The notes: generated by a model not told the origin, from the letters alone. 64,000 nucleotides of DNA from an uncultured Enterobacteriaceae bacterium (GCA_964565875.1 CAZMGP010000028.1:158-64157), one strand, 5' to 3'. Counted from the first letter of the stretch, positions 26,680 through 61,857 are shown. Numbers and translations are program-made.

Positions 26680-26908
26680 GGGAAATATTTCAAAGCCGAT
26701 CCTAAGGAAAACAACAGGATACCGAGTCGAAATCGATCAAAATATTTCCCGACTTCATCTGTTAAGCGATTGTTCCGACAATCTTTCTATGCATTTCTAA
26801 GACGGACTGTTAATCCGCAGGTCCCTGGTTCGAGCCCAGGTCGGGGAGCCAAAATCAACTACTTAGATTCAGCGCGCGAAGCGATTGGGAAATATCGCGG
26901 GTAATATC
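26680..26908 (+). repeat. att module 1: arm sites, IHF sites and tRNA-Asn core
   Basis: GGGAAATATT 26680; inverted AATATTTCCC 26741; core 26801-26851; IHF consensus AATCAACTACTTA 26853; GGGAAATATC 26887; GGGTAATATC 26899. Confidence 0.85.
26801..26851 (+). tRNA. Partial tRNA-Asn(GTT), 3' 51 nt only (att core, not a functional gene)
   Basis: Anticodon arm CGGA-CTGTTAA-TCCG, T-arm CCTGG-TTCGAGC-CCAGG, acceptor 3' strand TCGGGGA-GCCA; D-arm and 5' acceptor strand absent. Confidence 0.9.
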
Positions 26909-27036
26909 TTCGCGACGTCACTGCAGTAACACCCGGTCATTCAGCAAGTTAACCCTAGCAGCTCAGCGGACAACTGATCCGTCGCTCGCATCTGCAAAAA
27001 GAATACAATTTTGAGACGTCGAACGAAGATCTGCAG

Positions 27037-28206
27037 CTAGTTAACGCTGGCTGACGAGGAGATTTCTCGCCGGTCCAATATCTTCCAAAGACCGCGTGCC
27101 TCTAGATAGCTGAGGCAGGCTTCGACCTGCGCGTCCGTGAACGACTCCGGACCGCATACCCCCTTTTGTCGAAATTCGTTGCGGGCGATCAACTGGGCGG
27201 TGAACGAAGCCGGCAATGCCGTCATGCGCCCCTGCGGCAGCGGATCCCAGCCCTGCGGATGCCCCACCGTCATCTCGTTCACCACGCGCCGCCCCTTTTC
27301 TTCGCCGATGACGCGCACGCGCAGGAGATAGAGCGGCTGCACGCCTTCCGGCTTGAGCGAGCCGTCGCCCATCAGCGCGTCGCGCAAAAGCGGCTGAAAT
27401 TTCGTTCGCGCTCCGTTCACCTCGACCGTCAGATCCTGATCCATCAGTCCGAAACCGTAGAGCGCCTTGAGCAGATTCATGATCTTCGGCTGATACGCGC
27501 CGCGCACGCTCACCTTCTTCAATCCCGGCACGAATCGCGGCACGGTCACGGGCTCGGAATGCGGCGTGTAGACGAGTTCGACTTCCTCCTCCAGCCCGGG
27601 AAAACGCGTGCGTATCGCGCCTTCGAACGGAAGCTTAGAGTGGTAGGTGCCGTCCTCGAATACCGTCGCGCGGATATGGTTCCTGAATTGCCTGAGCGCC
27701 GTGTCGAGCAGGCCGAGCGAAGGATTCATCGGACGATGGGTCACATACTCCACTTCGACGACGATTTCACCCGCCGCGTTGCGCGCCCCGTAGCCGGCAA
27801 GCATGTTGGTTATTCCGGGGCTGCATCCCATGCCGATCAGTGCCGTGATTCCTGCAGCTTCGACCGCCGCGGACTTGGCTAGGCGCTCGTTAACGAGCAG
27901 TGTTCCATGCACGTCGAGGTAAGGCACCCGCGCCTTCATTGCGGCATCGAGAATTTCCAGGCTCTTCGAGCCGTCGGTGGTGTTGACGAGGACCGCCGCG
28001 CCTTGTGCGTGGCGCGCGAGCGCCTCCGGGTCAGCGACGTCGAGCGTCAGGTAAGCGACGCGCGACGCGCCCGCAATCCGCGCCGTTTCGGTGAGCGACG
28101 CGGTATTGTTGTCGATGGCCGTCACCTGCGCCCTGGCATCCGCGCCGAGCAGATCCTTGATGAGGCAACGACCGATATTTCCCGCGCCGACGACTACGTA
28201 ATGCAT
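27037..28206 (-). CDS. Saccharopine dehydrogenase-like NAD(P)-dependent oxidoreductase
   Basis: VVVGAGNIG Rossmann motif, VPYLDV, GMGCSPGITNMLA, HSEPVT; ATG 28206 behind GGAGGAG. Confidence 0.85.
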   Translation of the reverse strand: MHYVVVGAGNIGRCLIKDLLGADARAQVTAIDNNTASLTETARIAGASRVAYLTLDVADPEALARHAQGAAVLVNTTDGSKSLEILDAAMKARVPYLDVHGTLLVNERLAKSAAVEAAGITALIGMGCSPGITNMLAGYGARNAAGEIVVEVEYVTHRPMNPSLGLLDTALRQFRNHIRATVFEDGTYHSKLPFEGAIRTRFPGLEEEVELVYTPHSEPVTVPRFVPGLKKVSVRGAYQPKIMNLLKALYGFGLMDQDLTVEVNGARTKFQPLLRDALMGDGSLKPEGVQPLYLLRVRVIGEEKGRRVVNEMTVGHPQGWDPLPQGRMTALPASFTAQLIARNEFRQKGVCGPESFTDAQVEACLSYLEARGLWKILDRREISSSASVN

Positions 28207-28225
28207 CTTCTCCTCCACTGCAGGT

Positions 28226-29905
28226 TTATCGAGAACCGACGCCGTACACGCGTTCCGCCTCGGCGGCATCGATGAGACCGTCGGCGATATCCTCTGCGAC
28301 CGCGTCCGCCGCCCGTGATTTCGGGTCGCCGATTCCGCCTCCGCCTGGCACCAGCAGAACCAGCGCGGAGCCGGGCCGCATTTCGATACGGCTGCCCAGT
28401 TCGATCCGCTTGCCGTCCAGCTCGGCAACCGGTTCCGCGACGTCGCTCCCGCCATGCAGCCCGTACACCGGCACGCCGAAGCGTCCGCCGCGCACGCCGG
28501 CGACGAGCGGCCCATCGATGTCCTCGACCCATTCCGGCAGCCTGATCACGACGCGTTGGCCGAAGCCCCCGCGCTGGCGTCCGGCCCCGGCCGAGCTGGG
28601 CGCGAACATCTTCTCTTCGAACACGATCGGCGCATCGCTCTCGATGATCTCCAGGGGAATCGAGGCGACGTTTGCCGGATACGACAAGCAGGAGATGCCG
28701 TCGCGTCCGCCGCGGGCGCCCAGCCCGCCGTTGAACGTGACCACCGCATAGAAAGTTCGGCCGTCCTTGTAGCGCCCGGTGAAGTTGCCGTACCACAGGG
28801 GGGTCGATCCGCTGCCCGCCAGCACCCGCTCGGGCACGGCCTTGGCCAGTGCCTGCATGATCAGCTCGGGCAGAAAATGCGCGAGCACGGTCCGCCCCCA
28901 GGTCGCCGCCGGGAATACCGCGTTGAGGACGGAAGCGCTCGGCGCATGGACTTGAATCGGCCGCAGGCAGCCTTCGTTGTTTGGCACCCCCGGGTCGAGC
29001 AGGCATTTCAGGGGATACACCGAATACGACCGCGTCATGTTGAGCGAGACGTTGATCGCGCGGGGCACCTGCGGCGAGGATCCTGCGTAGTTGAGAACGA
29101 CGTCTTCGCCGCGGATGGCGAGCTTGAGGGCGAGCGTGATCGGCTGCGCCAAGCCGGTGACGCCCGTGAGGATCATGCTGCTCGCGAATTCCCCGTTAGG
29201 CAGTTCCCGCACCGCCCGCCTCATGCTGCTCTCGGACCTTGAAATGATCTCGTCGCCCAGCCGCTCCAGGCCGTCCAGGCCGGCGTCGTCCATGATCGCG
29301 ACCAGGCGATGTGCCGCGGCGTGCGTCGCCGCCACTTGGGCGCGAATGTCGCCCACCACCTTGTCCGCCTCGCGCACATTGGCGCGGATGAGCTCGAACA
29401 CGGATTCCTCGGCCTTGCCCTCTCGGTACAAAGGAATGATCGGAATCTGCAAGCCTTCTTCGTAGATGTCCCGCCCTTCCAGCGTCGCCAGCCGCCCGCC
29501 CACATTGAGATGATGGACCACGCACAACACGTAGCCGACGAGCGCCGCTCCCCGAAATACCGGCGTCGCGATGGTGATGTCGATCAGATGGCCGCTCGCC
29601 TGCCAGGGATCGTTGGTGATGAAGACGTCACCGGGGCGCGCCTGCGCGAAGCGCGTGTGGCGCAGGAAGTTCGGGATGGTGAACGGGAGGATGCCGAGCA
29701 GGCCGGGGGTCGAATGCGTCGACTGTGCCAGCATGCGCCCGCCGCGGTCGAACACGGCGCAGGCGTAGTCGTGAAAATCGCGGATGACGCTCGAGAACGA
29801 GGTGCGCACCAGGGTCGTCGCGGCCTCGTCGACGGCCGTGATCAGCCGCCGCCAGAGCAGCTCGATCTCGACCGCATTCAAGTTTCGCGGGCTCTTCGGC
29901 GCCAT
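28226..29905 (-). CDS. Hydantoinase B/oxoprolinase subunit
   Basis: RTSFSSVIRDFHDY, PGDVFITNDPW..GHLID, GAGRQRGG, PGGGGIGDP motifs. Confidence 0.93.
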   Translation of the reverse strand: MAPKSPRNLNAVEIELLWRRLITAVDEAATTLVRTSFSSVIRDFHDYACAVFDRGGRMLAQSTHSTPGLLGILPFTIPNFLRHTRFAQARPGDVFITNDPWQASGHLIDITIATPVFRGAALVGYVLCVVHHLNVGGRLATLEGRDIYEEGLQIPIIPLYREGKAEESVFELIRANVREADKVVGDIRAQVAATHAAAHRLVAIMDDAGLDGLERLGDEIISRSESSMRRAVRELPNGEFASSMILTGVTGLAQPITLALKLAIRGEDVVLNYAGSSPQVPRAINVSLNMTRSYSVYPLKCLLDPGVPNNEGCLRPIQVHAPSASVLNAVFPAATWGRTVLAHFLPELIMQALAKAVPERVLAGSGSTPLWYGNFTGRYKDGRTFYAVVTFNGGLGARGGRDGISCLSYPANVASIPLEIIESDAPIVFEEKMFAPSSAGAGRQRGGFGQRVVIRLPEWVEDIDGPLVAGVRGGRFGVPVYGLHGGSDVAEPVAELDGKRIELGSRIEMRPGSALVLLVPGGGGIGDPKSRAADAVAEDIADGLIDAAEAERVYGVGSR

Positions 29906-32002
29906 TTATCGATTCCCCACTTCCACCTGCAGCACACCGAAACGGTCGACCGAAAACGCCCCGCCGGGCCCGACGACCATAGTCGTCTCGCGCTCCTCGA
30001 TCAGGGCGGCCCCCTCGTGGCGGTGCCCCACCTGCAGGCGGTAGCGATCGAATACCGGGCAATCAACCTTTCCCTGGCGTTCGCCGAAGAACACGCTTCT
30101 GCTCCCCTTGCGCGCGTCGAGAACGCTTCCCGCCGCCCGCGGCAATTCCTGCGGCACGTAGGGCCTGGCCGTGGGTATGCGCGCGGTGACGCGCAAGTTG
30201 ACGAGTTCCACGACGACGTCGGCGTACACGCGCCCGTAGCGCTTGACGTATTCGGCCTCGAACGCGCGCTGGATTGCGGCTGCGTCCGTGCCGGACCAGG
30301 CTTGCGGCGCCGGCAGCGCCACGCGGATGTTGTAGCCCTGGCCGCGGTAGCGCATGTCGGCGCTGCGCTGCACGACCAGCGTCACAGGCTGCGTCTGCAG
30401 CAACTGCGCGGCTTCTGCTTCCAACTCGCGAAACCGACGGTCCAGATGCGCCGCGTCGATGCCCGAGACCGGCGCCTTGAACGTCTGCACGCGATCGATG
30501 GCCACATCCGCCACCAGCATGCCGAGCGCCGACATCACGCCGGCCGCCGGCGGCACGAGAATGCGCTCGACGCCCAGCTTCTGCGCCAGCCCGTAGGCGT
30601 GTACCGGCCCTGCGCCCCCGTAGGCAACCATCGTCAGCCGCGTCGCGTCCTCTCCCCGTTCCGCGAGATGCAGGCGCGCCGCGGAGGCCATGTCCTCGTT
30701 GGCGATGTCGTGGATGCCGAACGCGGCGATCTCGCCCGCTATTGCGAGCGGCTGGGCCACCCGCAGGCCTATCGCCTGCAGTGCGGCATTCCGATCGAGG
30801 CGCATGCTGCCGCCGAGGAAATAATCCGGGTTGAGCAGTCCCAAGGCGACGTCCGCGTCGGTGACCGTGGCTTCCGCGCCGCCCAGCGCATAGCTCGCCG
30901 GCCCCGGAGCCGCGCCGGCGCTCTGCGGTCCCACCTTGAGCAGACCCAGGTGATCGATATGGGCAATGCTGCCGCCGCCGGTGCCGATTTCGAGCAGATC
31001 ATACACGGGCACGCTGATCGCGAGCCCCGAACCGCGCTTGAAGTGATGCACCCGCGCCACTTCGTAATCGTCCGCGACCAGCGCCTCGCCGGCGATCACC
31101 GTGCACAGCTTCGCCGTGGTTCCGCCCATGTCGAAGCAGAAGAGGTTCGACGCTTCGCACAGCGCGCCCCACCAACGCGCCGCGGCGACCCCTCCCGCGG
31201 GCCCCGATTCGAGCACCCGGATGGGCACGGATTGCGCCGTCGCGCTCGAGACCACCCCGCCGCTCGACTGCATGATATAGAGCTGGCCCGGAAAGCCACG
31301 TTCGGCGAGCTGCTGCTCGATCCGATCCAGATAGCGCTCGATCAGCGGGCGGACGTAGGCGTTGGCGGCGGTCGTGCTGCTGCGTTCGTACTCCTTGATT
31401 TGAGGCAGGACGTCGCAGGATAAGGACACCGACAGGTCCGATGCGTGCTCTTGCAGGAATTCCCCCACCCGCCTTTCGTTGGCGGGGTTGGCGTAAGAGT
31501 GCAGCAGGCACACCGCCACCGACTGCACCTCGACGGCGCGCATGGCGGCGATGATCTTCTCCAGAGCCCGCTCGTCCGGCGCCGCAATCACTCTGCCGTC
31601 GGCCAGCGTGCGCTCAGCGAGTTCGTAGCGCAGGGCGCGCGGGATTAGCGGCGGCGGGAATTCGAGCTGCAGATCGTAGACGTCATAGCGCAGTTCGTTG
31701 CGCATTTCGATCACGTCCCTGAACCCGCGCGTGGTGATCAGGGCCGTGCGCACCCCTTTGCGTTCGATCAGCGCATTGATGACCAAGGTCGTTCCGTGCA
31801 CCATGGCGCTCGCCTCGTCCAAGCTGACGCCGTGGGCGCGCGCCATGTCCTCCAGCCCGATGCGTATCCCTTGCGCGGGATCGCGGGGCGTGGTCAAAGT
31901 CTTTCCCAGCCGCAGCGCGCCGCTTTGACCGTCGACGGCGACAAGATCGGTGAAGGTGCCGCCGATGTCCGTCCCGATCCTGAAGCGCTTGTTTCCCTTC
32001 AT
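29906..32002 (-). CDS. Hydantoinase A/oxoprolinase ATP-binding subunit
   Basis: DIGGTFTD, HGTTLVINALIERKG, ESGPAGG, DMGGTT, IGTGGGSIA, YGGAGPVH motifs. Confidence 0.94.
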   Translation of the reverse strand: MKGNKRFRIGTDIGGTFTDLVAVDGQSGALRLGKTLTTPRDPAQGIRIGLEDMARAHGVSLDEASAMVHGTTLVINALIERKGVRTALITTRGFRDVIEMRNELRYDVYDLQLEFPPPLIPRALRYELAERTLADGRVIAAPDERALEKIIAAMRAVEVQSVAVCLLHSYANPANERRVGEFLQEHASDLSVSLSCDVLPQIKEYERSSTTAANAYVRPLIERYLDRIEQQLAERGFPGQLYIMQSSGGVVSSATAQSVPIRVLESGPAGGVAAARWWGALCEASNLFCFDMGGTTAKLCTVIAGEALVADDYEVARVHHFKRGSGLAISVPVYDLLEIGTGGGSIAHIDHLGLLKVGPQSAGAAPGPASYALGGAEATVTDADVALGLLNPDYFLGGSMRLDRNAALQAIGLRVAQPLAIAGEIAAFGIHDIANEDMASAARLHLAERGEDATRLTMVAYGGAGPVHAYGLAQKLGVERILVPPAAGVMSALGMLVADVAIDRVQTFKAPVSGIDAAHLDRRFRELEAEAAQLLQTQPVTLVVQRSADMRYRGQGYNIRVALPAPQAWSGTDAAAIQRAFEAEYVKRYGRVYADVVVELVNLRVTARIPTARPYVPQELPRAAGSVLDARKGSRSVFFGERQGKVDCPVFDRYRLQVGHRHEGAALIEERETTMVVGPGGAFSVDRFGVLQVEVGNR

Positions 32003-32008
32003 TTCGCC

Positions 32009-33418
32009 TTACACGCCCTGCAGCACGCACTGCCGCACGATCGCACCTGCATCGTCGAGCGCTTCGAGGCTGCGTATCCGCTCGATCAATGCCTCGCCTC
32101 CGCTCCAGCCGGGCCGCCCATGGCGCGTGCAATCGAGGAATTTCGCCGCAAGCTCGTCGAATGACATCGGATTGTTTGGATGCCCTTTCACGTATTCGAC
32201 TACGCGCTTGGTCTCGCGCCCGCTGCGCTCGACGACTGTCACGATGCCCGGCATCGGGAACTTGCCGCGTCCCTCCGTCTGCGATTCGGTGCGCGCTTCG
32301 ACTTCGACTTTTTGCGTGAGCGCCCGGACCGCCGCATCGTCGAGGCTCGCCGGCGACGCCGCGGCGAAGCCGATGCTGCGATGGACCGCCGCCCAGGCCA
32401 GCATGAACGGCAGGCTAAACTGCGCGTCGGTCACGCTCGCCGGATTCCATTTGCGCTCGTGCGTGGTGCACACGAGGTCGAAGACTTCCTTGTTGGTCAC
32501 GACGACGCGGATGCGCTCGATGTCCTCGATCCGGATGGCGGCCTCCCCGGTCGCCGCGAGCAAGGCGTCGATCGGACCGTGGATGAACTTGCAGCAGGGA
32601 TAGAGCGGCTTGATGCTGACGTCGTTCGCGAGCCAGCGCGAGCCGAGCTCGCGCACCAGGTCGTCCCTGTCGTATTTGCCGCGGTGGAACACGTGGTAAT
32701 AGCCGAAGCGGCCTTCGAGCACGTCGGCCGAGCCGGTCAGATTGCGCTCCGCCATCAGCGCGGCGACGACACCGCCCTGCGCCGCGATCCCTTGCATCAC
32801 GCGTACGGTCATCGCGCCGGTGAGGAAACCCTGCTGGTTGCCGGCGACACAGGCATGCGCAATGCCCAGGGCATGACGCGTCTGCGCCAGGCTCAAACCG
32901 AGCAAGCGCGAGGTCGCAAGGGCCACGCCGTAATACGGACACTGATAAGTCATGGAGCTGCCGGTCTCGCTGAAGCCGATGCGCGGCGCTGCCGACATGC
33001 GGCAGATGATTTCGGAGCCCACGGCGACGGCGGCGACGAGATCGCGACCGCTGATCGGGCCGCGCGCCTGCGCCAGCGCAAGCATGGCCGGGACGGTGCT
33101 CACGTTGACGTGGCAGGTGTTCTGCTCGTGCACGTCGTCCAAGTCCCATGCCCGGGCCGCCGTGGTGTTGACCAGAACGGCAAGCGGCAGCGGCAGCTTC
33201 GCGCCGTTGGTGATCAGCGTGGCCTCGGGCCTGCCACCCCAGTGGCAGGCAAGCGCAGTGAGTTCGGCTACCGCGTCGGCGCGGATGCCCGCGATGGCGG
33301 TGCCGAGCGTGTCGAGCACGGCCATCTTCGTCCGCGCAACGACGTTCTGCGGAAGCCGCTCGTAGCGCATGCCATGACCGAATTCGAGCAATGCCTCCAT
33401 TGCGTCCGGCTTATCCAT
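32009..33418 (-). CDS. MmgE/PrpD family protein
   Basis: AWDLDDVH, KPLYPCCKFIH, AQFSLPF, KGHPNNPMS motifs. Confidence 0.9.
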   Translation of the reverse strand: MDKPDAMEALLEFGHGMRYERLPQNVVARTKMAVLDTLGTAIAGIRADAVAELTALACHWGGRPEATLITNGAKLPLPLAVLVNTTAARAWDLDDVHEQNTCHVNVSTVPAMLALAQARGPISGRDLVAAVAVGSEIICRMSAAPRIGFSETGSSMTYQCPYYGVALATSRLLGLSLAQTRHALGIAHACVAGNQQGFLTGAMTVRVMQGIAAQGGVVAALMAERNLTGSADVLEGRFGYYHVFHRGKYDRDDLVRELGSRWLANDVSIKPLYPCCKFIHGPIDALLAATGEAAIRIEDIERIRVVVTNKEVFDLVCTTHERKWNPASVTDAQFSLPFMLAWAAVHRSIGFAAASPASLDDAAVRALTQKVEVEARTESQTEGRGKFPMPGIVTVVERSGRETKRVVEYVKGHPNNPMSFDELAAKFLDCTRHGRPGWSGGEALIERIRSLEALDDAGAIVRQCVLQGV

Positions 33419-33483
33419 TCTTAGTCCTTCGCTCCAGGCAGATGCCCCAGAAGATCTTCACGGCAGAGCGACGTTCGCTCAAG

Positions 33484-34623
33484 CTAGCGCCCGCGTTCAT
33501 AGCCGGACTTCGCGCGCCGATCGAGCCACCAGCCGTATTGCACCGGCATTGCGCGAAACTCCGGATCCGCTCCCAGATCCTTCGCGGCATGCACTGCCCA
33601 GAAGGGGTCGTAGAGCATCTCGCGTCCAATTGCGACCACATCGGCGCGGCCGCTGGCGACGATCGCCTCCGCTTGTTGCGCATTGACGATCAGACCTACG
33701 GCGATCGTCGGAATGTCTGCTTCTTTGCGGATCGCTTCGGCGAAGGGAACTTGAAAACCGAGCTGGCGGGCGACGTTAGCCGCCGTGGGCGAGCGCACAT
33801 TGATGCCTCCGGAAGAGCAGTCGATCGCGTCAACGGCCCGCTTTTTCAGCTCTCGTGCGAGGGTAATCGAATCCTGCAGGCTCCAGCCGCCTTCGTCCAC
33901 GCAGGACGCGCGAAAGAATAGCGGCTTTCCTGCGGGCCAATAGGTTCGCACCGCTTCGGCAATCTCGAGCGCAAAGCGCATGCGGTTCGCCAAGCTGCCG
34001 CCGTACCGATCCGAGCGGATATTCGACGCCGGCGACAGGAATTCGTGCACGAGATAGCCATGCGCACCGTGGATCTCGAGCACGTCGACGCCTGCCTCGT
34101 CCGCTCGTCGCGCCGCTTGTGCAAATGCGTCGATGACTGTCCGGATGTCCTCTAACGTCATTTCCCGCGGTATCGGCCATCCATCGAGGTACGGCACCGC
34201 GCTCGGTCCGATCACGGGCCAGTGATCCTGCCCTTCGATCTTGATGCTGCGATCGAGCGGTCCAAATCCTTCCCAGGGGCGCTTGGTACCTGCCTTGCGG
34301 CCTGCATGGTTGAGTTGAATTGCGGAGACGGTGCCTTGCTTGCGCAGGAAATCCGTTATCTTGCGTATGGGCGCGATGTGCTCATCCTTCCACAGTCCCA
34401 TGTCACCCACGGTGCCGAGGCCGCGGCGCTCCACCTTGGTCGCCTCCATGGAGACGAGGCCGGCGCCGCCGATCGCGAATTTCGCAAAGTGCGCAAAATG
34501 CCATTCCTGCGCCGAACCATCGACTGCACAATATTGCGCCATGGGCGAGACCATGATGCGGTTGCGCAGCACCACGTCGCGAAACCGTAGCGGCGAGAAC
34601 AGAACCGATTGCTTTGCTGCCAT
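33484..34623 (-). CDS. NADH:flavin oxidoreductase / old yellow enzyme
   Basis: NRIMVSPMAQY, QLNHAGRKA, EIHGAHGYLVHEFLSP motifs. Confidence 0.92.
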   Translation of the reverse strand: MAAKQSVLFSPLRFRDVVLRNRIMVSPMAQYCAVDGSAQEWHFAHFAKFAIGGAGLVSMEATKVERRGLGTVGDMGLWKDEHIAPIRKITDFLRKQGTVSAIQLNHAGRKAGTKRPWEGFGPLDRSIKIEGQDHWPVIGPSAVPYLDGWPIPREMTLEDIRTVIDAFAQAARRADEAGVDVLEIHGAHGYLVHEFLSPASNIRSDRYGGSLANRMRFALEIAEAVRTYWPAGKPLFFRASCVDEGGWSLQDSITLARELKKRAVDAIDCSSGGINVRSPTAANVARQLGFQVPFAEAIRKEADIPTIAVGLIVNAQQAEAIVASGRADVVAIGREMLYDPFWAVHAAKDLGADPEFRAMPVQYGWWLDRRAKSGYERGR

Positions 34624-34650
34624 GGTGTTACACACTCCCCTGCGCTTGCA

Positions 34651-35625
34651 CTATTGCGCCTTGATTCCGGTGTTCTTCAGGAATGTCGTCCACTTGGTGA
34701 ACTCGGAGCGATGAAAGGCGATGAAGGATTCGCGCGAGCCGCCCATGATATCGACGCCCATGCCGTTCAAGCGCTCCACCACCGCCGGCTGTTTGAGTAT
34801 CGCGTCGATTTCGCTGTTCAGCTTCTCCAAGATGTCGGGCGGCGTGCCGGCCGGCGCCCAGATCCCGAACCAGGCGGTCACGTCGAAGCCGGGGTACCCC
34901 TGCTCGGCGATGGTAGGCACGTCGGGCAAGGCAGCCACGCGTTTGGCGCCGCTCGCGCCCAGAGGGCGCAGCTTGCCGCTCTTGATGTAGGGAATAGACG
35001 TCGCCGCCGCGTCGAACACCATGTTCATTTGACCCGCGAGCACATCGATCATTGCCGGCGCCGCGCCCTTGTAGGTTATTTCGGTGATATCGACTTTTGC
35101 CATGTGCTTGAGCAGTTCCGCGCCGAGGTAGGGCGAAGCGCCTATGCCTGTGCTTGCGTAGTTCAGCGACCCCGGTTTCGCGCGCGCGGCGGCGATCAGT
35201 TCTCCCAGCGTTTTGAATGGCGAGGAGGTCGGAACCACCAGGATGTTCGGAACCTGGGCTACCGCTATCACCGGTTCGAAATCCTTCAGCGGGTCGTAGC
35301 CGACATTCTTGTAAAGCACGGTGTTTAGGGTGAACGAACCGGCGTTCGACAGCACCAAGTTATAGCCGTCCGGCGCCGTCTTCGCGACTACCTGCGTCCC
35401 AATCGACCCGCCCATGCCGCCGCGATTGTCGACGACGACCGGTTGGCCGAGTTTTTCCGACAAGCCTTGCGCGATGGTCCTGCCGAGGATGTCGGTCATC
35501 CCCCCCGCGGGAAAGGTGACGACGAGCCGAATGGGCTTATCGGGGTAGGCCGCACTGGCGGAGATGCCCGGGCCGCCGAGGACGATCAGTATCGACGCGA
35601 TTACGCATTGCAGCAGCTGTTTCAT
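34651..35625 (-). CDS. Bug/TctC TTT substrate-binding protein
   Basis: YPDKPIRLVVTFPAGGMTD, APDGY, YDPLKDF, PDVPTIAE motifs. Confidence 0.93.
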   Translation of the reverse strand: MKQLLQCVIASILIVLGGPGISASAAYPDKPIRLVVTFPAGGMTDILGRTIAQGLSEKLGQPVVVDNRGGMGGSIGTQVVAKTAPDGYNLVLSNAGSFTLNTVLYKNVGYDPLKDFEPVIAVAQVPNILVVPTSSPFKTLGELIAAARAKPGSLNYASTGIGASPYLGAELLKHMAKVDITEITYKGAAPAMIDVLAGQMNMVFDAAATSIPYIKSGKLRPLGASGAKRVAALPDVPTIAEQGYPGFDVTAWFGIWAPAGTPPDILEKLNSEIDAILKQPAVVERLNGMGVDIMGGSRESFIAFHRSEFTKWTTFLKNTGIKAQ

Positions 35626-35677
35626 GGCGAATTTCCTCAAGGTTCAGATGCTCGACGCAAATTTGCTCGAATCGCAG

Positions 35678-36658
35678 TTAGAACTGGATCTTGATTCCGG
35701 TAGAACGGATGAACGCCGTCCAGCGCTCGAATTCGGCGCGGTGAAACGCGGCGAAGTTCTCCACCGATCCACCCATGATCTCCGCGCCCAATCCCGTGAA
35801 GCGCGCGTTGACGTCTGGCATCTTCAAGATGAGGTTGATTTCCTCGTTGAGCTTATGAACGATGTCGGGTGGCGTTCCTGACGGCGCCCACAGCGCGTAC
35901 CAGGCGACGACATCGAACCCCGGGTAGCCGCTCTCGGCGATGGTGGGCACGTCCGGCAGCGCCTTCAATCGATGCGGGCTGGTCGTAGCGAGGGCGCGTA
36001 TGGCCCCGGCTTTGATCTGAGGAATGGAAGTGCCGACCGCATCGAATGCCATGGTCACTTCCCCGCTTATGGCGGCCGTGAGGGCGGGCGCGCCGCCCTT
36101 GTACATCACCTCGAGTATGTCGACCTTCGCCATTTTCTTCAGCAGTGTCAGGCTCAGGCTGGGCGAGGCGCCGATTCCTGTGCTGGCGTGGCTGAGCGCG
36201 CCCGGTTTCGCCCGGGCTGCATCGATGATTTCGGAGAGATTTTTGAACGGCGACTTGCTCGATACCACGAGGACATTCGGCACCGCCGCAATCGGAATGA
36301 TTGGCGCAAAGTCCTGCAGCGGGTGGTACGGCAGCTTGTCGACCAATTCCGCGTTCACGGCGTGGGTGCCGAAGGTGCCAAGGACGAGGGTGTAGCCGTC
36401 CGGCGGCGATTTCGCAGCCAGATTGGTACCGATCGTTCCGCCCGCGCCACCGCGATTGTCCAATACCACGGGTTGGCCCAGCTTTTCGGTGAGTTTGACG
36501 CCTATCGTCCGTCCAAGCACGTCGGTCATCCCACCGGGCGGATACGGGATGATGATGCGTATGGGTTTATCGGGGTACGCGGCAGCCGCGGTTGCGCCCA
36601 CGCCGATCAATGCAAGGCCGGCAATAACCGCGGACAGACGTCGAATTAGCTGATGCAT
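35678..36658 (-). CDS. Bug/TctC TTT substrate-binding protein
   Basis: YPDKPIRIIIPYPPGGMTD, PPDGYTL, PDVPTIAE motifs. Confidence 0.93.
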   Translation of the reverse strand: MHQLIRRLSAVIAGLALIGVGATAAAAYPDKPIRIIIPYPPGGMTDVLGRTIGVKLTEKLGQPVVLDNRGGAGGTIGTNLAAKSPPDGYTLVLGTFGTHAVNAELVDKLPYHPLQDFAPIIPIAAVPNVLVVSSKSPFKNLSEIIDAARAKPGALSHASTGIGASPSLSLTLLKKMAKVDILEVMYKGGAPALTAAISGEVTMAFDAVGTSIPQIKAGAIRALATTSPHRLKALPDVPTIAESGYPGFDVVAWYALWAPSGTPPDIVHKLNEEINLILKMPDVNARFTGLGAEIMGGSVENFAAFHRAEFERWTAFIRSTGIKIQF

Positions 36659-36722
36659 TCAGGTACCTCCTCCGAGTTGTTAGTGCGATATCCCCGGCAC
36701 AGACCGCGGCCTCGCAATCAGC

Positions 36723-38363
36723 CTAGTAATGCGGATCGAACATCTGCGCGCGCACGTCGGCGAGCACGTCGGCGGGCTTCGCTTTGCCGGCAAGTCCGCT
36801 CGCGTAGGCGCACTCGGCAACCGCTGCCGCGATATGCGCCGAGACTTCGCGGATGCGCGGCAGCGCCGGGTAGAGGCTGCCCTGCTCGAGATCGGCTTCG
36901 GTGACGAGGTGCGCGAGCGTCTTCGCCGCAGCCATGAACATCTCGTCGGTGATGTGGCGCGTGCGGCTGGCGATCGCTCCCAGGCCCACCCCGGGGAAGA
37001 TGTAGGAGTTGTTCCCCTGCCGCGGCACGAAGGTCTTGCCGCTGTATTTCACCGGATCGAACGGGCTGCCGCAGGCAAATAGCGCGCGGCCCTTGGTCCA
37101 GCGATACGCCTCCTCGGCGTTGCACTCCGCCTTGGAGGTCGGGTTCGAAAGCGCGAACACGATCGGCCGCTCGTTGATCCGCGCCATTTCCTCGAGTACT
37201 TCTTGCGTGAAGGTGCCGCCGACGGCGGCCACGCCGACGATGGCGGTGGGTTTGAGCGCCTTGATCGCGGCGAGGAAATTGGGCACCGGGGCGTGATCGT
37301 GCGCGTAGGGGAGCTTGTGCTCGGCGAGATCGTTGCGGCTTTTCACCACCAGGCCGCGCGAATCGACCGCCCAGCAGCGCCGGCGCGCTTCCGCCTCGGG
37401 CAGCCCCTGCGCCATCATCGCCGACACCACCAGGTCGCAGATGCCGGTGGCGGCTTCGCCCGCGCCGAGGAAGAGGAGTTTCTGATCGCTGAACTTGCCG
37501 CCGGTGATGCGCAGCGCCGAGAACATGCCGGCGAGCGCGACCGCCGCGGTGCCTTGAATGTCGTCGTTGAAGCTGCAGATGCGGTTGCGGTATTTCTTTA
37601 GAAGCCGGAAGGCGTTGTGGTTGGCGAAATCCTCGAACTGGATCACCACGCCCGGGAACACTTCGGTCGCCGCGCTGATGAATTCCTCGATCAGCTCGTC
37701 GTAGGCCGCGCCGGTCAGGCGCCGCTGGCGTAGGCCGACATAGAACTGGTCTTCGAGCATCGCGGCGTTGTTGGTGCCGACATCGATGGTGACCGGCAGC
37801 GCGAGTTGCGGGTGCACGCCCGCGCAGGCGGTATAGAGGGACAATTTCCCCACGGGAATGCCCATGCCGTTCGCGCCCAGATCGCCCAAGCCCAAGATGC
37901 GCTCGCCGTCGGTAACGACGATGATCCCCGCCTGGTAGGGCCAGTTGCGCAGCAGCTGCTTGATGCGGCCGCGGTCGTTCGCGCCGATGAATAGCCCGCG
38001 CGGCCGCTGGAAGATGTGGCCGAATTTCTGGCAGGCAAGCCCCACGGTCGGGGTGTAGACGAGCGGCTGCATTTCATCGATGTTGTCGCACAGCACGCGG
38101 AAGTAGAGCGACTCGTTGCGGTCGTGCAGCGCATTCAGCGCGACGAACTTATCCAGCGGATCGGTCATGCGGCGCAGGCGTGCGAGCACGCGCACCGCCT
38201 GCTCCTCCTGCGTGTGCACATGCGGCGGCAGGAAGCCGCGCAGGTTGTATTTGTCGCGCTCGGCCTCGGTGAAACCGGTGCCGTGGTTCAGAGCGGGATC
38301 GCGCAGTATGTCCTGGCCGGTCTTGAACGACGCGCCCTCACCCACTAGAGTCTTGTCGAGCAT
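36723..38363 (-). CDS. maeA: NAD(P)-dependent malic enzyme, large MaeA/SfcA type
   Basis: VYTPTVGLAC, VVTDGERILGLGDLG, QFEDF, FNDDIQGT, LGAGEA, FALSNPT, QGNNSYIFPG motifs. Confidence 0.93.
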   Translation of the reverse strand: MLDKTLVGEGASFKTGQDILRDPALNHGTGFTEAERDKYNLRGFLPPHVHTQEEQAVRVLARLRRMTDPLDKFVALNALHDRNESLYFRVLCDNIDEMQPLVYTPTVGLACQKFGHIFQRPRGLFIGANDRGRIKQLLRNWPYQAGIIVVTDGERILGLGDLGANGMGIPVGKLSLYTACAGVHPQLALPVTIDVGTNNAAMLEDQFYVGLRQRRLTGAAYDELIEEFISAATEVFPGVVIQFEDFANHNAFRLLKKYRNRICSFNDDIQGTAAVALAGMFSALRITGGKFSDQKLLFLGAGEAATGICDLVVSAMMAQGLPEAEARRRCWAVDSRGLVVKSRNDLAEHKLPYAHDHAPVPNFLAAIKALKPTAIVGVAAVGGTFTQEVLEEMARINERPIVFALSNPTSKAECNAEEAYRWTKGRALFACGSPFDPVKYSGKTFVPRQGNNSYIFPGVGLGAIASRTRHITDEMFMAAAKTLAHLVTEADLEQGSLYPALPRIREVSAHIAAAVAECAYASGLAGKAKPADVLADVRAQMFDPHY

Positions 38364-38393
38364 ACTTGTCTATCCTCGTGAATACGCGCCTTA

Positions 38394-39374
38394 TTACTCG
38401 ACCTTGATCTTGGCTTCGCGGATGAATCGCGACCAGCGCTCGATTTCCGCGTGCTGGTACCGTGCAAGTTCCTCCGAGCTGCTCACAACCAAATCGACCG
38501 CGAGGTCGTCGAGGTGCGCTACGGTGTCCGACTGCGTCGCGGCAGCCGCGATGGTATTGCGGATCTTCGCCACGATTTCCGATGGCGTACCCTTCGGCGC
38601 AAACACGGCATACCAGGTGACGATATTGAATCCTTGCACGCCGTCTTCGATCATCGTCGGTAGATCGGAAGCCGCTTTCGCGCGTGACGTGCCCGTGACC
38701 GCCAAGCCTTTGAGCTTTCCGCTTCTTACGTAGGGCAGCGCGCTCGGCATGTAGTCGAACGTCAGGGACACGTGTCCCGCCATGAGATCGGTGAGAGCCG
38801 GGGCACTGCCGCGATAGGGCACATGAACGATGTCGACCTGTGCGAGCCTGCGAAACATCTCACCGGCGAGATGCGATGCGGTACCCGCGCCCGCAGAGGC
38901 GTAGGTCAATTTGCCGGGATTGGCTTTTGCGTAGCTAATGAGTTCTTTGACGTTGCTAATCGGCAGCGACGGAGTGACTGCGAGCAGGTTGGGCAGCGTG
39001 GCGAGCAGCGTAACCGGCGCGAAGTCCTTTTCCGGGTTGTAGGTGATCTTCTTGTAAAGGCTGGCATTGACTGCATGCGTACCGATCGTTCCAAGAACGA
39101 TGGTGTAGCCGTCAGGCGCCGCGTGCGCGACCAGTTCCGTGCCGATAATGCCGCCGGCTCCGGAGCGGTTTTCCACCACCACCGGCTGGCCCCAGGCTTC
39201 CGACATCTTTTGGGCAAATATGCGCGCAAGGATATCGGTCGTACCCCCTGGCGGAAACGGCACGACGAACTTAACAGTCTGATTTGGATAGCTATCTGCG
39301 AACGCTGCGACTGTCACCACACTCGCCGCCACCGCGACCAAGCAGCGATATGCCCATTTGCTAATGCGCATCAC
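38394..39374 (-). CDS. Bug/TctC TTT substrate-binding protein
   Basis: VVPFPPGGTTD, APDGYT, HVPYRG motifs. Confidence 0.93.
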   Translation of the reverse strand: MMRISKWAYRCLVAVAASVVTVAAFADSYPNQTVKFVVPFPPGGTTDILARIFAQKMSEAWGQPVVVENRSGAGGIIGTELVAHAAPDGYTIVLGTIGTHAVNASLYKKITYNPEKDFAPVTLLATLPNLLAVTPSLPISNVKELISYAKANPGKLTYASAGAGTASHLAGEMFRRLAQVDIVHVPYRGSAPALTDLMAGHVSLTFDYMPSALPYVRSGKLKGLAVTGTSRAKAASDLPTMIEDGVQGFNIVTWYAVFAPKGTPSEIVAKIRNTIAAAATQSDTVAHLDDLAVDLVVSSSEELARYQHAEIERWSRFIREAKIKVE

Positions 39375-39469
39375 GGACCTCCTCCTTAAGATGGCAACTA
39401 CAGCCGCCCTCCCTTGGCGGCTGGATTATTTCTTCGCTACGCGTTAACCCTACGTATTCCATGTACTCT

Positions 39470-39485
39470 AAATGGTATACCATTT
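39470..39485. promoter_or_regulatory. Putative GntR/FadR operator
   Basis: Perfect palindrome AAATGGTATACCATTT in a divergent intergenic region. Confidence 0.75.
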
Positions 39486-39828
39486 GATGTCAATCGCACA
39501 TTTTCCTGTTATGATCAGACACCATCTTGAGCGTTGGATATTATCTAGCGAAGACGCTCCAACTCTCAGCGCTGAAACGCGGCAGCACGGCGAAGGTCTA
39601 TGGCACTAGGGAACGAAATCGTCTTGGAGGCGCAAGAAACCGTTATGAAGAAGGAGCGTCGCCACGCAGCCCCCAGCGACAAACCGAGAAAAATCGCAGG
39701 TACCGCGCCATCTCGCACAGATGGAGCGCGGACAGCGGCAGGTTCCCGCGCACGGAGCCCGATAACAATATGATTGATCTGCGTGCGCTGCCTAGCCGAA
39801 GGTCCAAATTCCAACGAATCCGAGGAGG

Positions 39829-41070: not shown

Positions 41071-41077
41071 TTCGCCA

Positions 41078-41106
41078 ATCGGACCGCGGTCGTGCCGCGG
41101 TCCGAT
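41078..41106. terminator. Hairpin between convergent genes
   Basis: ATCGGACCGCGG-TCGTG-CCGCGGTCCGAT, perfect 12-bp stem, no strong U-tract. Confidence 0.55.
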
Positions 41107-41123
41107 CGCAGGCCTGATTTCCT

Positions 41124-41975: not shown

Positions 41976-42071
41976 AAGGTGCCTCGCTCCTTTCGTCTGC
42001 CTTTATGCGTCCGCGGCCCGAAGTGCCGCAGCCGATGAATCATGTTCTGTGCCATGCGCTCGTTACGTCGG

Positions 42072-43112: not shown

Positions 43113-43246
43113 ATTTCGAGCCCTCCTCGAGGCGCCGCATCACGCAGCTCGGCGTCGGCCGATAGACATTTCGCGGCCTGACGCGCTGACGCTAGCGCAT
43201 AGGCCGGTTCGCGACCTGCTTCGCCGGCACGCGTGACGACATAGTA

Positions 43247-43262
43247 CGATGGTATACCATCG
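43247..43262. promoter_or_regulatory. Putative GntR/FadR operator
   Basis: Perfect palindrome CGATGGTATACCATCG in a divergent intergenic region. Confidence 0.75.
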
Positions 43263-43507
43263 ACGGTCAATCGCACGCCAACTTTATATTTCTTGACACC
43301 ATTTTACCGCTTAGATATTGTAAGCATCGTTGCAATGGCTATCTGGCGCACACCTTCCTCCATGCTTAACCGACCCGACTTTCAACTCGGTTTCGTATTG
43401 GAGTTCCCCTCACCGCGCTGGATTCCCGTCGGCCCACGCAAGGTTCGGTTCGCCCACGCGGACACACTTCGATACTCATACATACATTCCATTGGAGGAG
43501 GTTCACC

Positions 43508-44743: not shown

Positions 44744-44755
44744 CTCGTAGGACTG

Positions 44756-44783
44756 CTCCGAGGGCGCCTTGGCGCCCCCGGAG
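44756..44783. terminator. GC-rich hairpin between convergent genes
   Basis: CTCCGAGGGCGCC-TT-GGCGCCCCCGGAG. Confidence 0.45.
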
Positions 44784-44877
44784 GACCGATCGCGATCGCT
44801 TAAGCTGATGGACGAAGGAGCCTGCTCGCGCGAGCCTGGAGTTTTTGAAGTCGGCCTAGCGGCAGCCGGGCTTACTA

Positions 44878-59199: not shown

Positions 59200-59242
59200 G
59201 CCAGACGGTGAAATTTCAAGATTTCAACCTAACCCAACGGAG

Positions 59243-59833
59243 ATGAAATTGAGCGTCAAGGATCAATATTCGCCCGAGCGCATCGCCGATCGCATGGCGA
59301 TTCAAGACGTGATGTACAAATGGTGCCGAGCGATAGACCGGCTGGACTCTGAGGGCATGCGGGCCGCCTTCCATCCCGATGCCATCGATAGCCACGGAGC
59401 CTACGTGGGCGGCGTGGACGGGCTGGTGCAATGGGTGCAGGAACGGCACAAACCGATTCCGTTTTCCAGCCATCAGGTGTCCAACATGCTGATCGAATTC
59501 GCAAGCCCCGATCTTGCGCTGGTCGAGACTTACATCCGCACCCTGCAGCACTACCCGGCGGAGGCCAAGGCGAGCTTGGCGCAACTATCCGGCGGTGCAT
59601 CGGGCAAGCCGGGCGTCGGCGTCGACCTCATGACCTCTTCACGCTACGTCGATCGCTTCGAGCGGCGCAACGGCAAATGGCGGATTGCCCGCCGTACGCT
59701 GATCCAGGACTGGAAGCACTTGCTCGAGGTCCATGGAGAACCGCCCAAGGCGAAATCCGGCTGGTACGTGGGCCGGCGCGACAAGCAGGATTTCGTCTAT
59801 GTCGAGCGCGCCGAACTCGGCATAAGCGACTGA
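59243..59833 (+). CDS. NTF2/SnoaL-like protein
   Basis: DRMAIQDV..WCRAIDRLD, FHPDA, RYVDRFERRNGKWRIARR motifs. Confidence 0.88.
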   Translation: MKLSVKDQYSPERIADRMAIQDVMYKWCRAIDRLDSEGMRAAFHPDAIDSHGAYVGGVDGLVQWVQERHKPIPFSSHQVSNMLIEFASPDLALVETYIRTLQHYPAEAKASLAQLSGGASGKPGVGVDLMTSSRYVDRFERRNGKWRIARRTLIQDWKHLLEVHGEPPKAKSGWYVGRRDKQDFVYVERAELGISD

Positions 59834-59990
59834 GGCGGCTTCGATCCCAAGGGCCGCAAAGGCCGAAAATCGATGTGAGCGCGAATGATGGGACCGTCCG
59901 CAAGGTCCCGCGCTGTCGTCGTCAGCGCCTCATATCGGTTCAGCCCCTATAATCGCGCCTGAGCAAGAACCTCGCCCCGAGGAGGCTGCG

Positions 59991-61667
59991 CTGTCTTCCC
60001 CTTTCTCTCCAGCAGCGACGCAGGACGCGCCGCTGACGCTCGCGCAGGCGCTCGTGCACAGCTTCCGCGACTATGCTGCGCGCCCTGCAATCAAGCCTCT
60101 GGGCGAGGCGCCTCTCACTTATGCCCAGATCGAACAACGGGTCAGAGCTGCGATCTCCATATTACGCAGGCTCGATTGCCGCGCCGGCGACCGCGTCGGC
60201 ATATGCTTGCCCAATCGCCCCGAATGGCCGGTTCTCAGCTACGCAGCCGCGCTGCTCGGACTGTGCATCGTTCCCATCAATGTTCGCCTGCGCGCCGGCG
60301 AACTCGCGCATGTACTGCGCCACTCACGGCCGAAAGCGATATTCAGCCAGGAGCGATTCCTGAGCAACGATCTGCTTGTCCGCTACCGGGAAGCGGTCAC
60401 GCAGCTCGGAGCTGAGAACGCGGATTTCGCCGCGCAATCGATCCGCCTCGTCCTCGTCGACGACTCAGCTCACGCCGGGGCGCTGAGCTATCGCAGCCTG
60501 GAGGCAGAAGGCGTCGAAAAGCTCGATCTCGCCGAGCTCGCCAGAGAACGGTCGGCGAGCGATCCCCTGTGGCTATTCTGGACTTCGGGGACCACCAGCA
60601 CCCCTAAAGGCGTCCTGCTCGCGCAATCTGCGATTGCAACGGTGTGGAACTGGACGCGTCTCGCGGGCTATCGCGCCGACGACAGGGTGCTCGTATCGCG
60701 CCCGCTGTTTTACATCGCCGGGCATTTCTGGTGCATGCTGGGCCCCCTTTTGCACGGCGCCCTTGCCGTCATCGGCGAGCGCTTTACACCCGAAGAGATC
60801 GTCAGGCTGTGCGCCGAGGAGAGAATCAGCGTCCTTTCCGGCAATCCCCTGCTGCTCAAGCAAGTCGTCACCGATCGCACTTTCGACGCGACGGCGTTTT
60901 CCCAGGTGCGGCTGGGCTACTTCAGCGGCTCGAGCATTTCTTTTGACGACCTCAAACGCATCAAGCATTCCATTCCTTACCGGTCGCTTTTGCAGACTTA
61001 CGGCGCAACCGAGTTAACCGGCTTTGCCTGCAGCACCCTCCCCGACGACACGCTCGAGTCGGCCCATGCGAGCTGCGGCTACCCTTTGCCGGATGTTGAA
61101 ATGCATTTGGTCGACGCTGAAACAGGCGTCGCCGTGCCCCAAGGCAGCATTGGCACCCTGCTCGCCAAGACACGCAGCTTCATCGACTACGTTGGTGTCT
61201 CAAGCGCTGATCGCCCGAAGCTGCTGACCGATGATGGCTGGATACGGACGGGTGACCTGATGCGCCAGCATCCCGATGGACGCTACGAGTTCATCGGACG
61301 CATCAAGGACCTTATCAAGGTCGGCGGGGAAAACGTGGCGGCGAGCGAGATCGAGCGGGTGCTGCTCGCCCACCCTGCGATCAAAGAGGCGGCTGTCGTT
61401 GCCATTGCGGACGCTCAGCGCGGCGAGGTGCCGTTCGCTTATGTCGAATTGGAGCATGAGGCTTCGCTTAGCGACGTGGAAATCCAGGCGTGGTGCCGCG
61501 AACGCATGGCGCCTTTCAAAGTGCCGCGATTTGTGGCGTTCATGCGTGATGGCTCGTGGCCCATGACCGCAACAGGCAAAATCGCTAAGAATGAACTTGC
61601 CTCACGTGGAGCGGCTCGGCGCAAAAAGTGGGAAACATCGCCGATTTCGACTACGACAAAACAATAG
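59991..61667 (+). CDS. Acyl-CoA ligase (AMP-forming); probable CTG start (first canonical start is GTG 60054)
   Basis: WTSGTTSTPKG, YGATE, WIRTGD, GRIKDLIKVGGENV, TGKIAK motifs; GAGGAGG 5 nt before an in-frame CTG at 59991. Confidence 0.88.
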   Translation: MSSPFSPAATQDAPLTLAQALVHSFRDYAARPAIKPLGEAPLTYAQIEQRVRAAISILRRLDCRAGDRVGICLPNRPEWPVLSYAAALLGLCIVPINVRLRAGELAHVLRHSRPKAIFSQERFLSNDLLVRYREAVTQLGAENADFAAQSIRLVLVDDSAHAGALSYRSLEAEGVEKLDLAELARERSASDPLWLFWTSGTTSTPKGVLLAQSAIATVWNWTRLAGYRADDRVLVSRPLFYIAGHFWCMLGPLLHGALAVIGERFTPEEIVRLCAEERISVLSGNPLLLKQVVTDRTFDATAFSQVRLGYFSGSSISFDDLKRIKHSIPYRSLLQTYGATELTGFACSTLPDDTLESAHASCGYPLPDVEMHLVDAETGVAVPQGSIGTLLAKTRSFIDYVGVSSADRPKLLTDDGWIRTGDLMRQHPDGRYEFIGRIKDLIKVGGENVAASEIERVLLAHPAIKEAAVVAIADAQRGEVPFAYVELEHEASLSDVEIQAWCRERMAPFKVPRFVAFMRDGSWPMTATGKIAKNELASRGAARRKKWETSPISTTTKQ

Positions 61668-61857
61668 TTTAACTATATCGAACTGAAAGAAATCTTCCCA
61701 CCAGCAGTTGGTATGTGCTTGATCAGCAGTCGACTTTTGCTGTTTTCAGGATGGACTGTTAATCTGCAGATCCCTGGTTCGAACCCAGGTCGGGGAGCCA
61801 AAATCAATCACTTAGAGTTTCCACCGAACGCGATTGGGAAATATCGCGGGTAACGTC
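61630..61857 (+). repeat. att module 2: arm sites, IHF sites and tRNA-Asn core
   Basis: GGGAAACATC 61630; inverted AAATCTTCCC 61690; core 61750-61800; IHF AATCAATCACTTA 61802; GGGAAATATC 61836; GGGTAACGTC 61848. Confidence 0.85.
61750..61800 (+). tRNA. Partial tRNA-Asn(GTT), 3' 51 nt only (att core)
   Basis: 47/51 identical to 26801-26851; 5' portion absent. Confidence 0.88.

Follow-up and report, generated by a model that had tools for sequence, protein, structure and literature searches.

How did two incomplete copies of a tRNA-Asn gene come to lie in direct orientation, 34,949 bp apart, among catabolic genes? The question is raised by a 64,000-nt stretch of DNA from an uncultured Enterobacteriaceae bacterium (GCA_964565875.1 CAZMGP010000028.1:158-64157), part of contig C28 in a draft genome (155 contigs; 5.1 Mb; 94% complete; 4.2% contamination; assembler k = 55). 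We call this whole stretch the window and use its positions for the two tRNA fragments (sites A and B) and for the units that they delimit (units 1, 2, and 3). Here, we report that both fragments lie in two-armed sites with the apparent layout of attachment (att) sites and that the locus was probably built by tandem accretion, at tRNA-Asn, of integrase-less islands similar to cis-mobilizable elements (CIMEs).

The fragments (51 nt each) are 47/51 identical to each other; because ARAGORN found no tRNA gene in the window, neither is a full tRNA gene. In the genome, this core repeat is present as four 51-nt fragments (identical to the tRNA at 47 to 51 of 51 positions) and one intact tRNA-Asn gene. 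Each core in the window is followed at +2 by a match to WATCAANNNNTTR, which we take to be the consensus of integration host factor (IHF), and then by one of exactly two copies in the window of the 24-mer GCGATTGGGAAATATCGCGGGTAA (at 26881 and 61830), starting 30 nt after the CCA in both cases; none of 100 shuffles gave a match at 3 or fewer mismatches. An earlier interpretation of the window, made before any search (the sequence-only reading), had described two direct fragments with this spacing, neither of them a full tRNA, each with an IHF box and an identical 24-mer 30 nt past the core. All of this was borne out, with our coordinates one base to the left.

The cores are flanked by arms on both sides (Table 1). 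At junction A, the left arm holds GGGAAATAT in direct orientation at 26680 and inverted at 26742 (-124 and -62 from GGACTG), and the right arm holds an IHF-consensus box at 26853-26865 and the 24-mer at 26881-26904, the latter consisting of tandem GGGAAATAT/GGGTAATAT at +36 and +48. A left-arm profile searched against the 5.1-Mb genome found only four sites (A, B, a junction on contig C90, and the end of contig C123), and a right-arm profile also found four (A, B, C90, and an orphan arm at C10:18475-18589). The left arms share a layout of about 130 nt with the direct GGGAAATAT at -124/-123 and the inverted copy at -62/-61, while the right arms share an IHF-type box at +2 and the tandem motifs at +36/+48 within the 24-mer, followed in three copies by a conserved tail to about +145. 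The arm-type repeat takes the form GGG(A/T)AATAT, and its copies keep fixed distances from the core on either side. The complete set of positions (-124, -62, +2, +36, and +48) was found at A and C90 and nearly so at B and at the junction between contigs C123 and C28 (J0); a site of the same build occurs on an unrelated metagenome contig, L062, described below. From this arrangement, the junctions appear to be laid out like lambda-type attachment sites, arm-type repeats included.

Conservation within the arms is selective. Among the four right arms, the 24-mer is identical at 24/24 or 23/24 positions. Between A and B, it is identical at 24/24, but the 13-nt spacer matches at only 4/13 positions and the next 36 nt at 8/36, which is chance level. 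The right arm of junction A is 84-88% identical to those of C90 and the C10 orphan over 112-170 nt, and the similarity of the junction B right arm to the other arms ends just past the 24-mer. On the other side of core B, the last codons of an AMP-ligase open reading frame (ORF; 60054-61667) overlap the left arm. Only three places in the genome, the tRNA flank, site A, and C90, have GGGAAATAT in clusters (at least two within 300 bp). For the 12-mer GGGAAATATCGC, a count over 5.1 Mb gave six copies, all of them in arms, beside the tRNA, or less than 70 nt from the stop codon of an integrase gene on contig C10.

Table 1. Coordinates of the junctions, units, and recombinase genes discussed in the text (window positions unless a contig is named)
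Feature	Position	Strand	Basis or content
Unit 1	1-26668		Catabolic and transport block; left bound is the C123/C28 junction just outside the window
Decayed tyrosine-recombinase fragment	25156-25716	-	186 aa; PF00589, 30.8 bits; 1.1 kb left of site A
PIN toxin and ribbon-helix-helix antitoxin	25977-26375 and 26372-26635	-	Adjoins the junction A left arm
Left (P-type) arm, junction A	26669-26800	+	nhmmer left-arm profile, motif positions, alignment of 4 left arms
tRNA-Asn 3' fragment A (core)	26801-26851	+	51/51 identical to the intact gene on C10; anticodon stem to CCA
Right (P'-type) arm, junction A	26852-26996	+	IHF-consensus box, 24-mer, conserved tail with short stem-loop
Unit 2 cargo	26997-61618		Pfam: metabolic only
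Left arm, junction B	61619-61749	+	GGGAAACAT at 61630; degenerate inverted motif near 61690
tRNA-Asn 3' fragment B (core)	61750-61800	+	47/51 identical to the tRNA
Right arm, junction B	61801-61856	+	IHF-consensus box 61802-61814; 24-mer 61830-61853
Unit 3 start	61857-64000		Glyoxalase-like, enoyl-CoA hydratase, then AMP-ligase past the window
Tyrosine integrase (Phage_integrase by Pfam)	C10:61992-63362		Head element, end far from the tRNA

Under the accretion reading, an accessory region of at least 150 kb would have been built by repeated site-specific integration at the single tRNA-Asn gene of the genome. Integration of each circular element would regenerate the tRNA and shift the older 51-nt 3' fragment downstream, so that an internal junction would join one unit's left arm, through the fragment, to the right arm of its neighbor. 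Only catabolic, transport, and regulator genes, and no cognate integrase, are carried by unit 0 (to the left of J0), by units 1 and 2, and by those adjoining the C90 junction, which would make these units CIME-like.

The cargo of unit 2 fits this description. Out of 32 ORFs scanned against Pfam, 28 belonged to metabolic, transport, or regulator families, and 4 small ORFs were unmatched. The catabolic genes encode hydantoinase A/B, a PrpD-like protein, two OYE flavoenzymes, a malic enzyme, short-chain dehydrogenases/reductases, enoyl-CoA hydratases, an acyl-CoA dehydrogenase, two AMP-ligases, and family III CoA-transferases, and they are accompanied by three TctC receptors, two LivJ-type binding proteins, and a GntR regulator. 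Unit 1 encodes an HpcH aldolase, PrpD, CoA-transferases, an enoyl-CoA hydratase, an ABC branched-chain transporter, IclR, acyl-CoA dehydrogenases, a thiolase, and TctC. Cargo of the same type was found in the start of unit 3, in C10:1-18442, on C123, and on both flanks of the C90 junction, with regulators of the GntR, IclR, and LysR types among the units. The G+C content changes across site A from 0.54-0.57 to 0.64-0.68. The malic enzyme gene of unit 2 (36723-38363) has a second copy at C84:3654-5235 (89% DNA identity) and is 81-86% identical to those of 13 out of 22 congeners.

Unit 2 is flanked by a right arm at its left end and by a left arm and core at its right end, and the region 26852-61800 gave no match to PF00589 or PF00239 in six frames, although the genome as a whole gave 13 and 3 matches, respectively. 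No integration, excision, or transfer genes were present among the 32 scanned ORFs (no six-frame search for relaxase or type IV secretion families was made), and PF05930 (AlpA-type excisionase) had no six-frame match in the whole genome. The claim in the sequence-only reading that no integrase lies between sites A and B therefore held in these searches, which revealed no resolvase or AlpA-type excisionase there either. A candidate cognate integrase lies within the island only in the element at the head of the array, not in unit 2 or in the units whose left arms were examined. Intact cargo genes directly abut three out of four left arms, and no remnant of an integrase of the C10 type was detectable within 900 nt upstream of any of the four.

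These clean edges bear on a second explanation, possible in our view but doubtful, in which ordinary islands lost their integrases and transfer genes by deletion, the junctions are inert, and the C10 integrase is inactive on them. Intact cargo next to the left arms and the lack of integrase remnants within 900 nt both speak against such a fossil array, as does the survival of the 24-mer and the arm motifs where neighboring bases have fallen to chance level. Several other features of the locus point the other way, the first of which lies just left of site A.

The sequence-only reading had found no integrase next to either site, which did not hold at site A, where a tyrosine-recombinase fragment is present at a distance of 1.1 kb (Table 1). 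It aligns only to about residues 261-367 of recombinases of about 430 aa and lacks the N-terminal half and the C-terminal catalytic part. The tail of its ORF, together with the adjacent ORF of 100 aa, repeats in diverged form the 5' end of an acyl-CoA dehydrogenase gene (window positions 19198-19635) and the sequence upstream of that gene. The duplicate spans 24817-25330, within unit 1, and is 52-70% identical at the protein level. Fused in this way to the recombinase fragment, it is a rearrangement scar, and read as a deletion scar it favors loss of integrases from once ordinary islands. At best, relatives of the fragment shared 42-45% identity with it across about 100 aa. In congener G005, the genes that it matched best each stand first in a cluster of three recombinases, and no tRNA was found in the fetched flanks of 10 homologue loci; for these two reasons, the fragment is probably the remnant of another mobile element and not the cognate integrase of the unit, which leaves intact the central point that the units lack one. 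Clusters of three adjacent recombinases are known as "recombinase in trio" elements, and the fragment looks like what is left of one. In G005, tyrosine recombinase genes lie three side by side in at least six clusters (contigs C191, C353, C371, C388, C402, and C464), and PF00589 matches number 34 in all.

If unit 2 does not encode an integrase, where might one be encoded? The single intact tRNA-Asn gene of the genome (C10:78145-78220, complement) is directly followed by an IHF-type box at +6 and three arm motifs. Beyond them lies an element of 16.3 kb, the head element, with genes for NADAR, HAD, PRTase-CE, ORC-CDC6-like, and AAA domains and then a tyrosine integrase (Table 1). An integrative mobilizable element would have an integrase and a relaxase of its own but no conjugation pore; in the head element, the integrase and a weak MobA/VirD2 relaxase match (26 bits against a cut-off of 24.6) lie within 16 kb of the tRNA, and the far att site lacks a core. 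An exact GGGAAATATCGC lies less than 70 nt from the integrase stop codon, and a second arm motif overlaps the stop codon itself, 64 nt from the first (start to start), compared with 62 nt in the left arms. Read from M96 (362 aa), the integrase matched the lambda Int chain 1z1g_A from residue 1 (E 4.3e-4), which lends weak support to a predicted arm-binding N terminus. By the proximity of these motifs, it is the only integrase in the assembly that we can tie, as a candidate, to the att family. A left-arm profile match beside the integrase was weak alone (E 0.06) and was set aside in favor of the exact 12-mer count, and an 18-nt imperfect direct repeat around the head element was rejected as probably due to chance.

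Close relatives of the C10 integrase were not found in the genome collection; a search of 300 genomes from the order reached 38% identity at best, with uninformative tRNA neighborhoods. Two observations on the surrounding genes are recorded separately. The row of NADAR, HAD-like, PRTase-CE, and ORC-CDC6-like genes in the head element (C10:71765-77351) resembles a putative anti-phage defense cluster, and a DNase II-like protein is encoded beside a protein with a Tle1-like phospholipase domain at C10:56957-59428. The latter pair lies in a 43-kb stretch of C10 with a mixture of genes, among which Pfam gave no clear transposon or conjugation genes. At the far side of this stretch is the orphan right arm, from which the core and the IHF box are missing. 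Six copies of GCCGGAAT (four exact and two with one mismatch) lie in about 130 nt at C10:18590-18725, ahead of the orphan arm in the orientation of the tRNA and abutting the start of the right-arm similarity. The junction may have been broken here by another mobile element, with these repeats as its end.

The order of the units was derived from contig ends. The end of C123 and the start of C28 share one 55-mer that contains the core, with a full left arm on the left side (J0), and overlaps of 55 nt link C10, C153, C123, and C28 in the orientation of the tRNA. C153 is a two-copy repeat with C19 and C110 as its other overlap partners. Since the C153 homologue is flanked by C110-like and C19-like sequence in 8/8 congener loci, the native copy would be C110-C153-C19 and, by elimination, the island copy C123-C153-C10. 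On this path, the four junction fragments and the intact tRNA-Asn all have the same orientation. The likely order is tRNA-Asn, the 16.3-kb head element, the 43-kb stretch, the orphan right arm, unit 0 (about 27 kb), J0, unit 1 (27 kb), site A, unit 2 (34.9 kb), site B, and unit 3, which would give an array of at least about 150 kb. The sequence-only reading had predicted further core copies, an intact tRNA-Asn starting TCCCCGA to the left, and a tyrosine integrase at the head of the array or elsewhere. Further copies were found at the C123/C28 boundary and on C90, in addition to the orphan arm on C10; the only intact tRNA-Asn starts with these letters and lies upstream on the most likely assembly path; and a tyrosine integrase with an arm motif at its stop codon lies in the head element next to it.

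The C90 junction could not be placed in this order because of multi-copy repeats at contig ends. C28 ends 3.1 kb beyond the window in such a repeat; 12 contig ends carry its last 40 nt and 8 carry the first 40 nt of C90, probably as the termini of multi-copy insertion sequences with bodies missing from the bin. A segment of at least 2.7 kb (C153, 1,878 bp, with C123:89-815 and C10:1-131) is present twice, in its native place and in unit 0. It carries an AMP-ligase gene, a 249-aa ORF, and an ORF running into an acyl-CoA dehydrogenase-like C terminus on C10, and its middle 1.9 kb are so alike that the assembler collapsed them, which suggests recent copying of chromosomal genes into the island or gene conversion.

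Related genomes place the boundary of the foreign DNA at the tRNA. The product of the gene upstream of tRNA-Asn was 71-89% identical (amino acids) to that on C10 in 12/12 relatives' loci, and the downstream DNA was different in each; synteny thus held up to the tRNA and ended right after it in all 12, as the sequence-only reading had predicted for breaks at the core. In 22 congeners, unit 2 had no syntenic counterpart and orthologue-level matches only for the malic enzyme (26852-44800 checked), and unit 1 had only paralogue-level matches (1-19900 checked). By this comparison, units 1 and 2 are accessory DNA. Since congeners carry other tRNA-Asn fragments with different flanks, tRNA-Asn is a general hot spot in the genus; no integrases were found on the tRNA-Asn contigs of 5 congeners, which are short.

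Exact-pattern scans for the att family and the candidate integrase elsewhere gave only two short metagenome contigs, L061 and L062, both by the left-arm/core boundary pattern. A 21-mer gave no match in metagenome contigs, and the boundary pattern gave none in viral contigs; five matches of a 17-mer in viral contigs were chance-like, with no core nearby. On L062 (1600-2800, minus strand), two tRNA-Asn fragments 1.05 kb apart enclose only PIN and ribbon-helix-helix genes and a left arm. Its left flank is a cytochrome oxidase cluster, and its right flank is a right arm (motifs at +38, +50, and +58) followed by VapB and PIN; tblastn of the 13 recombinases of this genome gave no match to L062. On L061 (55-110), the left arm and core are interrupted by an ORF that, from its N-terminal sequence, we take to be an IS110-type transposase. 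Because a ribbon-helix-helix and PIN gene pair adjoins the left arm both in this genome (Table 1) and on the unrelated contig L062, the pair may belong to the backbone of the family. The unit on L062 with only a toxin-antitoxin pair looks like the end state of decay, and as such it favors a fossil array. Apart from these contigs, an 804-nt contig of public run X3, from the same sample as the runs that span junction B (see below), has a loose end at window position 61802 and continues the tRNA-Asn 3' end with GAAATCAAGGGGTTAGG. This is another flank of the IHF-box type that is absent from the contigs of this genome, which indicates further such elements in the community.

The same data raise a third explanation, which we consider improbable. 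In it, the units would form a lineage of catabolic cassettes, operon-scale and without an integrase, with selection maintaining their two-armed att sites; one lambda-like integrase in the head element would capture, excise, and reorder them behind tRNA-Asn. If this were true, the locus would be an integron-like accretion platform for whole regulons. None of the six fragment sites in two organisms (four two-armed junctions and J0 with its left arm, from this genome and L062, and one armless fragment on L062) has a cognate integrase beside it, all units carry cargo of the same type that cleanly abuts three out of four left arms with no C10-type remnant within 900 nt, the arm motifs are conserved across otherwise diverged arms, and one integrase in the head element bears an arm motif. 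The same facts fit decay after accretion, however, and the units are 27-35 kb long with their own regulators and are not single promoterless ORFs; the head junction is broken, and no identical cassette was found in another place or order in 40 relatives and 22 congeners.

Returning to tandem accretion of CIME-like islands, which we think likely, a number of observations weigh against it. The link between the integrase and the att sites is one of motif proximity together with a weak lambda Int match. In the expected place behind the integrase on C10, there was no second core (no match of 11 nt or more), and the 43-kb stretch lies between the integrase-side motifs and the orphan right arm; because the junction after the head integrase lacks a core and lies 43 kb from that arm, the head element may be unable to excise cleanly. 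The right side of J0 lacks right-arm motifs. No recombined junctions were seen in contigs from public runs, which cannot show rare recombinants. In 40 relatives, only the tRNA part of the sites was matched, and exact core-plus-arm patterns had no match in the genome collection, a scan that would miss diverged arms. Six matches of a 19-mer from the 24-mer in unrelated phyla of that collection were taken to be chance. These scans provided no full integrase-bearing relative of a unit, and in a draft that is 94% complete with 4.2% contamination, another integrase may be missing from the assembly. Finally, sites A and C90 share an exact stretch of 56 nt, which is longer than k = 55, so their partner arms and the unit order depend on how the assembler resolved this repeat.

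Some of these observations also fit inert junctions: the right arm on C10 has lost its core, J0 has no right arm, and the right arm of junction B is cut short past the 24-mer. Most such tandems hold decayed elements according to the part of a review of integrative and mobilizable elements that treats them (PMC5704250).

The 56-nt stretch shared by A and C90 bears in addition on the possibility that wrong joining or binning at a repeat in a metagenome assembly produced the tandem order, to which the 155-contig draft state, its contamination, and the two contigs that break exactly at the core also lend some weight. We judge this very unlikely. The core of junction B differs from the other cores at 4 places and is therefore unique at k = 31. 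Five public runs contain part of the stretch, one (X5) only a small share and the other four, available as contigs built with short words, from one sample (which may be the source); Logan contigs from those four separately assembled runs span junction B without differences, one of them with a contig of 10.6 kb. Short core-only contigs from the runs had depths of 17-70, compared with 7-9 for the flanks, which fits a multi-copy core. The four junctions have clearly different arms and are thus distinct loci, the tRNA flank on C10 is syntenic with congeners, and a mis-join of A with C90 would alter how the units are ordered but would not do away with two-armed junctions.

With accretion of CIME-like islands as the likely origin, the head integrase would have made the array, and the units may once have had an integrase of their own or may never have had one. 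On this reading, any pair of junctions could still serve the head integrase for excising or shuffling units; continued activity of the junctions is conceivable, although we lean towards their being inactive. The locus shows how about 150 kb of foreign catabolic capacity can accumulate at one tRNA gene of an environmental bacterium. Most of it consists of organic-acid and CoA-ester pathways, which come with transporters and regulators of their own, and the junctions are unusually complete in that motifs are conserved where neighboring bases are not. If one integrase can move its integrase-less neighbors, such arrays would be reservoirs of whole pathways that could be excised alone or in blocks; if it does not, the locus is a clear example of islands becoming fixed.

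In islands built by lambda-type tyrosine integrases that target tRNA genes, the core is the 3' part of the tRNA from the anticodon stem, with arm-type repeats on both sides and an IHF site. As in lambda-type attP, arm repeats flank the core here and an IHF-consensus box lies beside it, and the N-terminal region of the head integrase aligns with that of lambda Int from residue 1. In contrast to such islands, the integrase gene is not next to most junctions, and in the head element it lies far from the tRNA and reads towards left-arm motifs. The integron analogy drawn in the sequence-only reading fits only loosely. What is shared is the idea of one recombinase serving many recombinase-less units in a row; a cassette of an integron is usually one ORF without a promoter, carries a folded attC site, and is captured by IntI at attI, whereas the units here are 27-35 kb with regulators, and their sites are derived from a tRNA. 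The array has neither IntI beside attI nor cassettes ending in attC, and no attC-like structure was seen, although no search was made for it.

The closest counterparts are CIMEs, for which the primary papers are said to be Pavlovic 2004 and Bellanger 2011. The relevant part of the review cited above defines CIMEs as att-flanked elements without an integrase and describes them, together with tandem accretion, for islands related to ICESt1 and ICESt3 of Streptococcus thermophilus (PMC5704250). As here, att-flanked units without integration or transfer genes are stacked with an integrase-bearing element at one target gene, and the junctions carry sequence of both neighbors. Compared with the CIMEs described in that part, the present array has at least three to four consecutive integrase-less units, tRNA-Asn serves as its target, in a genome of Gram-negative type with many TctC receptors, and its att sites, known from sequence alone, are long and two-armed with lambda-type arm repeats (PMC5704250). 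A catabolic analogue exists in Dehalococcoides, where, in the sections of the source available to us, tandem islands with catabolic or respiratory cargo lie within 100 kb downstream of the tRNA-like gene ssrA and 15 islands without an integration module were proposed as CIMEs (PMC3146451). There, too, the island bounds are direct repeats of the 3' end of the target gene; a serine recombinase (DsiB) lies next to attL, and the repeat is 20 bp, unlike the tyrosine lambda-like candidate enzyme, the 51-nt repeat, and the two conserved arms found here (PMC3146451). Because the CIME definition and the Dehalococcoides ssrA proposal are already published, the novelty raised in the sequence-only reading does not stand: accretion of integrase-less, att-flanked units is a known phenomenon, of which this att family appears to be a further case. 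What sets it apart is how many catabolic units without an integrase follow one another, how complete and selectively conserved both arms are, and that a single candidate integrase lies at the head.

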